Positions 7,175-7,362 of a DNA stretch of 64,000 bases are shown in pieces (the stretch's first letter is position 1; each line of letters begins with the position of its first letter). The stretch lies in the NCBI RefSeq assembly GCF_044647545.1, contig NZ_CP172818.1, one strand, 5' to 3'. The stretch is from Escherichia coli. Its GTDB lineage: Bacteria; Pseudomonadota; Gammaproteobacteria; Enterobacterales; Enterobacteriaceae. Below the pieces are notes generated by a model. That model did no database searches and was not told the origin of the DNA. It saw nothing but the letters and a program-made list of their open reading frames with translations. The position numbers and the translations under genes were made by a program.

Positions 7175-7362
7175 GGGGGGGGGGGGGGGGGGGGGGGGGG
7201 GGGGGGGGGGGGGGGGGGGGGGTGCGGTCGGGTCGGCGTTGTGCTCCCGGGGGGGGGGGGGGGGGGGGGGGGGGGGGGGGGGGGGGGGGGGGGGGGGGGG
7301 GGGGGGGGGGGGGGGGGGGGGGGGGGGGGGGGGGGGGGGGGGGGGGGGGGGGGGGGGGGGGG
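7175..7362. repeat. two homopolymeric G tracts (about 48 nt and about 113 nt) separated by about 27 nt of GC-rich sequence
   Basis: Directly visible; generates the poly-Gly (+) and poly-Pro (-) ORFs in the six-frame track. Not a feature of native enterobacterial DNA. Confidence 0.95.

Follow-up and report, generated by a model that had tools for sequence, protein, structure and literature searches.

Poly-G Tracts of 48 and 114 Nucleotides in an Escherichia coli Chromosome Record: Very Probably Uncorrected Read Sequence Left in the Consensus

Introduction

Homopolymeric G or C runs are found in bacterial chromosomes at the contingency loci of Neisseria, Haemophilus, and Campylobacter. Contingency tracts are about 8-20 nt long and keep their position from one relative to another, in promoters or at the 5' ends of genes that are intact. 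Low-quality segments of raw PacBio CLR or nanopore reads are a different kind of sequence, with errors dominated by deletions, under-called T runs, colinearity over kilobases, fluctuating quality, and an abrupt return to polished sequence. G runs that are absent from the DNA can also be made by the instrument. In two-colour chemistry (NextSeq/NovaSeq), a fading signal causes T and C to be read as G in the tails of reads (PMC6129281). Such poly-G tails are a documented two-colour artefact and the target of poly-G trimming in fastp (PMC6129281).

Here, we describe two G homopolymers of 48 and 114 nt (G48 and G114) in the window, by which we mean the whole 64-kb stretch of DNA that was analysed. 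They share with the contingency loci a homopolymeric run in a bacterial chromosome, but they measure 48 and 114 nt, lie in junk sequence, and are absent from a relative with identical flanks. With two-colour poly-G tails they have in common that the G runs are instrument-made, absent from the DNA, and give rise to false composition and false open reading frames (ORFs). In contrast to those tails, they come without in-register substitution, with deletions over more than 1.4 kb, with 2.2 kb of damage, and with a sister patch that is poly-A. All of the properties listed above for raw PacBio CLR or nanopore segments are shared by the sequence around the tracts, although the loss of C (58%, against 13% for A) and end homopolymers of more than 100 nt go beyond what ordinary raw long-read error produces.

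The gadB-ydeO Locus and Its Close Relatives

The window is E. coli, and the locus is the acid-resistance neighbourhood gadC-gadB ... ydeO-safA-ydeP. The reference used for comparison, MS6198 (NZ_CP015834.1), was reached through an exact-protein look-up with YdeP. The window aligns to it in the following blocks:

1-6989: 6989 of 6989 positions identical
9060-16372: 99.5% identical
18831-37304: 99.8% identical
37487-59548: 99.98% identical

In the blocks 9060-16372 and 18831-37304, nearly all differences from MS6198 cluster at the edges of two damaged patches, which are described below. When 9060-12000 was compared with MS6198, the last difference was at 9220, with none beyond it within the compared range. 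To the right of 9220, identity is about 99.98%, with one mismatch in 6,060 nt at 10313-16372 (locus L011). An early figure of 94% identity was an average with the degraded pieces included. A divergent Escherichia, suggested by the flanks of SC477 and PSJ-07 (96-98.8% identity), was dropped as a candidate source given the 100% identity to MS6198. Since the flanks are near-identical, the divergence of the two strains is too recent for natural decay to have produced the degraded sequence. ORFs outside both patches are intact. The clean flanks and intact ORFs indicate an ordinary E. coli whose assembly is clean and in which the damage is local.

Between the flanks, MS6198 carries 10,286 bp with pqqL, yddB, yddA, ydeM, and ydeN, against 2,070 nt in the window. 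Of these five collapsed genes, the window text shows recognizable remains of ydeM and a part of ydeN only. The place of the tracts is occupied in MS6198 by pqqL, which is free of any such tract. Eight other loci were fetched through the identical YdeP protein. In these loci, ydeM, yddA, and yddB are kept throughout (8/8), ydeN is present in seven of the eight, and pqqL is found in 7 where the locus extends that far. Some of the loci carry IS insertions and a segment is missing in one, and none of the eight has a gadB-ydeO interval shortened in the manner of the window.

The G Tracts and the Sequence to Their Left

The tracts and the features next to them are as follows:

6990-7174, + strand: left junk, 185 nt, 66% G+C, which follows the last MS6198-identical base and holds a G10 run
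7175-7222, + strand: G48 homopolymer, from exact run count and sequence reading
7223-7248, unstranded: A-free spacer of 26 nt, TGCGGTCGGGTCGGCGTTGTGCTCCC, between G48 and G114
7249-7362, unstranded: G114 homopolymer, from exact run count
7011-7403, + strand: spurious poly-Gly ORF
7126-7425, + strand: spurious poly-Gly ORF
7241-7390, + strand: spurious poly-Gly ORF
7153-7488, - strand: spurious poly-Pro ORF

An earlier, sequence-only reading had put the two runs at about 48 and about 113 nt, and exact counting gives 48 and 114. It had also noted that the tract creates spurious poly-Gly and poly-Pro ORFs, and both kinds are present. Smaller G runs lie close by, namely G10 at 6996-7005 and G8 at 7372-7379. 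The longest homopolymer elsewhere in the window is 9 nt by exact count (64 kb minus the two damaged patches), and the longest G run in MS6198 is 6 in the 94 kb examined. By arithmetic, about 6e-25 G runs of at least 48 nt are expected in 64 kb at 25% G, which rules out chance. The tract is missing at the corresponding position of MS6198 and its flanking genes are garbled, the opposite of what is seen at contingency loci.

The left junk begins 61 nt into the 3' end of pqqL and leads into G48, the spacer, and G114. Directly after 6989, in-register identity to the reference is at the chance level (approximately 25%), and the mismatches ahead of the G tract in this comparison are mostly non-G. The junk at 7006-7174 and the 26-nt spacer were also compared with the missing 10.3 kb on both strands by a drop-out-tolerant alignment, for which the target was a 10.9-kb reference interval, and the scores equalled those of shuffles. 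Searched against 5,426 complete E. coli genomes, 7006-7174 matched none of them, and its matches among plasmids (PLSDB) were at chance level only. Vector, adaptor, or foreign DNA was considered as the origin of the left junk and rejected, as the E. coli genome and plasmid searches gave none.

The Degraded ydeM-ydeN Island and the Right Edge

To the right of G114, real gene sequence can be recognized in a degraded form:

7363-8860, unstranded: degraded island of base-dropped ydeM and the 3' part of ydeN, colinear with the MS6198 locus at approximately 17,900-19,880
8861-9059, + strand: right junk, G/A-rich, 5% C overall, from composition and sequence reading
9060-9220, unstranded: degraded right edge, reaching from the ydeN-ydeO intergenic region into the final codons of ydeO, with 31 errors, mostly C deletions

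The island aligns at 75-76% identity, each piece showing about 130 gaps. Even its first part, 7363-7460, scores 61.5 against 44.7 +/- 1.5 for shuffles. At 7400-8860, 1,957 reference bases have become 1,461 window bases. Against MS6198, deletions in this stretch number 514, compared with 18 insertions and 16 substitutions; over 1.46 kb, this amounts to a loss of 26% of the reference bases, with insertions at 1.2% and substitutions at 1.1%. The window contains no N.

The deletions are strongly base-specific. On the + strand at 7400-8860, the deletion rates are 58% for C, 26% for T, 14% for G, and 13% for A. Isolated C is lost at 57%, and the loss of C is largely the same at all run lengths, whereas the deletion of T rises from 13% for single bases to 40-53% in runs of 3-4. 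The loss of C also depends on its neighbours: it is 39% after G versus 65-67% after A or T, and it is somewhat lower before T as well. The quality of the island peaks at 8080-8180, with 5 deletions per 100 window nt at 8080. Deletions climb from there toward G114, reaching 67 per 100 nt at 7380, and they become worse rightward too. Quality thus decays in both directions into text of one or two letters, with irregular fluctuation along the island.

The right junk as a whole has no significant alignment to the reference interval, and there is not a single C at 9001-9100. Approximately 1 kb of the 5' sequence of ydeN is missing at this place. At the degraded right edge, the 251 N-terminal residues of YdeO equal those of MS6198, after which the window protein ends at 256 aa (...ALGLIIC) rather than 253 (...ALAI). 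The altered end of YdeO (9204-9220, - strand) is a false variant that comes from the tail of this first patch. Exact-protein look-ups with the altered YdeO, the poly-Gly ORF, and the poly-Pro ORF were negative, as were exact-pattern scans of genome and metagenome contigs with text from the junctions. In total, the damage spans 6990-9220, or about 2.2 kb, which exceeds the length of one short read (at most 300 nt).

A Second Patch of the Same Type

The window contains one further region with the same kind of damage:

37160-37490, + strand: second, independent patch of the same type, from run counts and comparison with MS6198

There are zero differences from MS6198 at 35000-37159, and deletions of G only start after this point. 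In the second patch, G is lost first, then T, and then C. The residue consists of A runs of 13, 28, 10, 16, and 17 nt plus a few G. The core at 37305-37486 is unalignable and places 182 nt where the reference has 318, and perfect sequence is back abruptly at 37487. The damage falls on the 5' part of dgcF/yneF, a diguanylate cyclase gene, which is destroyed along with the spacer in front of yneG, and it gives rise to a spurious ORF (37093-37533). The diguanylate cyclase ORF of 315 aa is itself on record, on many contigs (75 collection blocks).

Origin of the Tracts

G48 and G114 are not a real genomic feature. We regard it as very probable that they are a sequencing and assembly artefact, in which the raw, uncorrected text of low-quality reads was left in the consensus. 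Bases dropped selectively by type, next to flanks that a relative shares letter for letter, point to a failure of base calling and not to mutation. That the tract is artefactual had already been proposed from the letters of the window, and the base-specific deletions, the clean flanks, and the second patch all agree with it.

At two places, the consensus would be a raw low-quality read that was neither corrected nor trimmed. The likeliest setting would be untrimmed ends of reads or contigs at a joint, or a patch at approximately single-read coverage. Along such a read, the base-caller may progressively cease to detect particular nucleotides. The outcome would be base-specific deletions with few substitutions and a final run of one letter, namely G48 and G114 at the first patch and poly-A at the second (37.4 kb). 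In this way, normal genes that take up 10,286 bp would have been reduced to 2,070 nt at the joint between gadB and ydeO. Each homopolymer may then represent the end state of one failing read. G48 could mark where a plus-strand read from gadB tails off, and the poly-A could be the end of a plus-strand read at 37.4 kb. For G114, a minus-strand read with its start near 8190 may be responsible, on which the tract would be a poly-C tail; this is suggested by the deletion gradient, which worsens toward G114 from the right.

On balance, the platform was probably one of single-molecule long reads, of the PacBio or nanopore type, judging by the error spectrum only. An event-based platform is favoured by deletions that leave no placeholder and by a colinear piece of more than 1.4 kb. 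A deep long-read consensus would normally polish such errors away, so this attribution carries the additional assumption of near-zero coverage or of a pasted-in contig end. A pure model of one dark channel was considered and set aside: run length has little influence on the loss of C, but neighbour effects are present. The neighbour-dependent loss of C means that the simple picture of one dark dye channel is incomplete. A literature search for descriptions of PacBio missed pulses or sticks gave nothing usable, and we know of no described standard signature that exactly matches this error pattern.

The sequence-only reading had assigned the tracts to no-signal G calls of two-colour chemistry or to degenerate synthetic sequence. 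The second of these is unsupported, as the degraded text derives from real ydeM-ydeN, and the first is not supported in view of the immediate loss of register, the deletions over more than 1.4 kb, and the poly-A of the second patch. It would be very unlikely for poly-G tails of two-colour Illumina reads to have been assembled or polished into the contig. Such tails are documented (PMC6129281), the tracts are pure G on the + strand, and at 48 and 114 nt each of them is below the length of a short read. However, two-colour tails would replace T and C by G in place, and here the register of the reference is gone at once, with mismatches before the tract that are mostly other than G. Cycle-based short reads do not make errors such as 514 deletions against 16 substitutions, nor over such a length. 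The second patch ends in poly-A, with runs of up to 28 nt, which is not the default of that chemistry. If the deletion gradient is read as above, G114 would moreover be poly-C on a minus-strand read. A variant, in which a gap-filler or polisher drew poly-G short reads onto a poor long-read backbone, is compatible with the deletion-rich backbone but leaves the poly-A patch unexplained. Tails of Sanger capillary reads that an older shotgun or finishing project left untrimmed and joined where contigs end are an unlikely origin, although the lengths of the pieces would suit it. In called bases, degraded pieces measure about 830 nt (7363-8190) and about 820 nt (8240-9060), tails of about 330-370 nt (6990-7362 and 37160-37490) also fit, and the quality of each piece decays into junk. 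Capillary base-callers keep a near-regular spacing of calls, and a missing peak usually becomes an N or a miscall and not a clean deletion. This is at odds with 514 deletions against 16 substitutions and zero N, and a deletion rate of 20-30% already 200-400 nt from the supposed start of a read is untypical.

Corruption of the text on purpose or in silico, by simulated drop-out, a file-handling error, or machine-generated fill, would make near-pure base-specific deletions and the orderly loss of G, T, and C in the second patch simple to obtain. It is nevertheless highly improbable, since the run-length-dependent loss of T and the neighbour-dependent loss of C resemble the behaviour of an instrument, quality fluctuates irregularly along the island, and the structural variants against MS6198 look natural, as expected for a real isolate. 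To a genuine chromosomal poly-G between gadB and ydeO, be it a contingency locus, a G-quadruplex tract, or a homopolymer-tailed engineered insert, we give a vanishingly small probability. The letters do stand in the record, with unique sequence flanking them on each side. The neighbours of the tract, however, have dropped bases (58% of C), yet identity is 100% one nucleotide outside, and no mutational process yields genes with bases dropped in this manner. The flanking junk matches none of 5,426 E. coli genomes, the longest G run of the relative is 6 in 94 kb, and a patch of the same style 30 kb away ends in A. A further scenario combines a real change with failing reads: the isolate may truly have rearranged or deleted pqqL-yddB-yddA by gadB, with a difficult native structure that made the reads fail. 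Such a structure may be, for example, a long insert, rich in G or able to form hairpins, at which polymerases or pores stall. The chance of this scenario is slight; if it were true, a real sequence feature that went unread would lie behind the junk, and not a random patch of low coverage.

Consequences for Use of the Record

The significance of the tracts is limited to data hygiene, with 6990-9220 and 37160-37490 to be flagged as corrupted. The first patch hides or destroys pqqL, yddB, yddA, ydeM, and ydeN. The poly-Gly and poly-Pro ORFs are false gene calls, the C-terminus of YdeO is altered, and a diguanylate cyclase gene is truncated by the second patch. Studies of the pan-genome, of pseudogenes, or of gene loss that use this record would be misled at both sites. 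In practice, a homopolymer of giant length calls for comparison with a close relative and for a look at the error spectrum of its flanks. Equating poly-G with two-colour Illumina data is an unsafe shortcut.

Other Differences from MS6198

Several differences from MS6198 lie away from the two patches. At 17221-18830, the window carries 1.6 kb that is missing from MS6198, with an ORF of 459 aa and a small upstream ORF on the - strand. These ORFs look like a hipA-hipB toxin-antitoxin pair, and the segment appears to be natural variation and not damage. In K-12, hipBA lies at the same position. At window position 16372, about 4.6 kb of MS6198 is absent, comprising a partial fimbrial usher gene, chaperone and fimbrial subunit genes, and IS2. 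A truncated usher ORF remains at 15146-16294, and the junction at 16372 is clean. This arrangement resembles that of the K-12 pseudogene ydeT.

Similarity to MS6198 stops at 59548, in the vicinity of pinQ and of tail-fibre genes that belong to a defective prophage. The stretch after it (59549-64000, 4.4 kb) is AT-rich, with 33-36% G+C at 62-64 kb, and its only match, at 62059-62581, is at 80%. It is probably variation in a prophage remnant.

A public E. coli chromosome obtained through the dgcF look-up (locus L015; CP121673.1, GCA_030995285.1), which is not where the window comes from, has fragmented genes in the neighbourhood of dgcF. The fragments include a glutaminase of 298 aa, a DUF4186 protein of 84 aa, and uxaB split into 87 and 370 aa, which suggests that CP121673.1 is an indel-rich, unpolished assembly.
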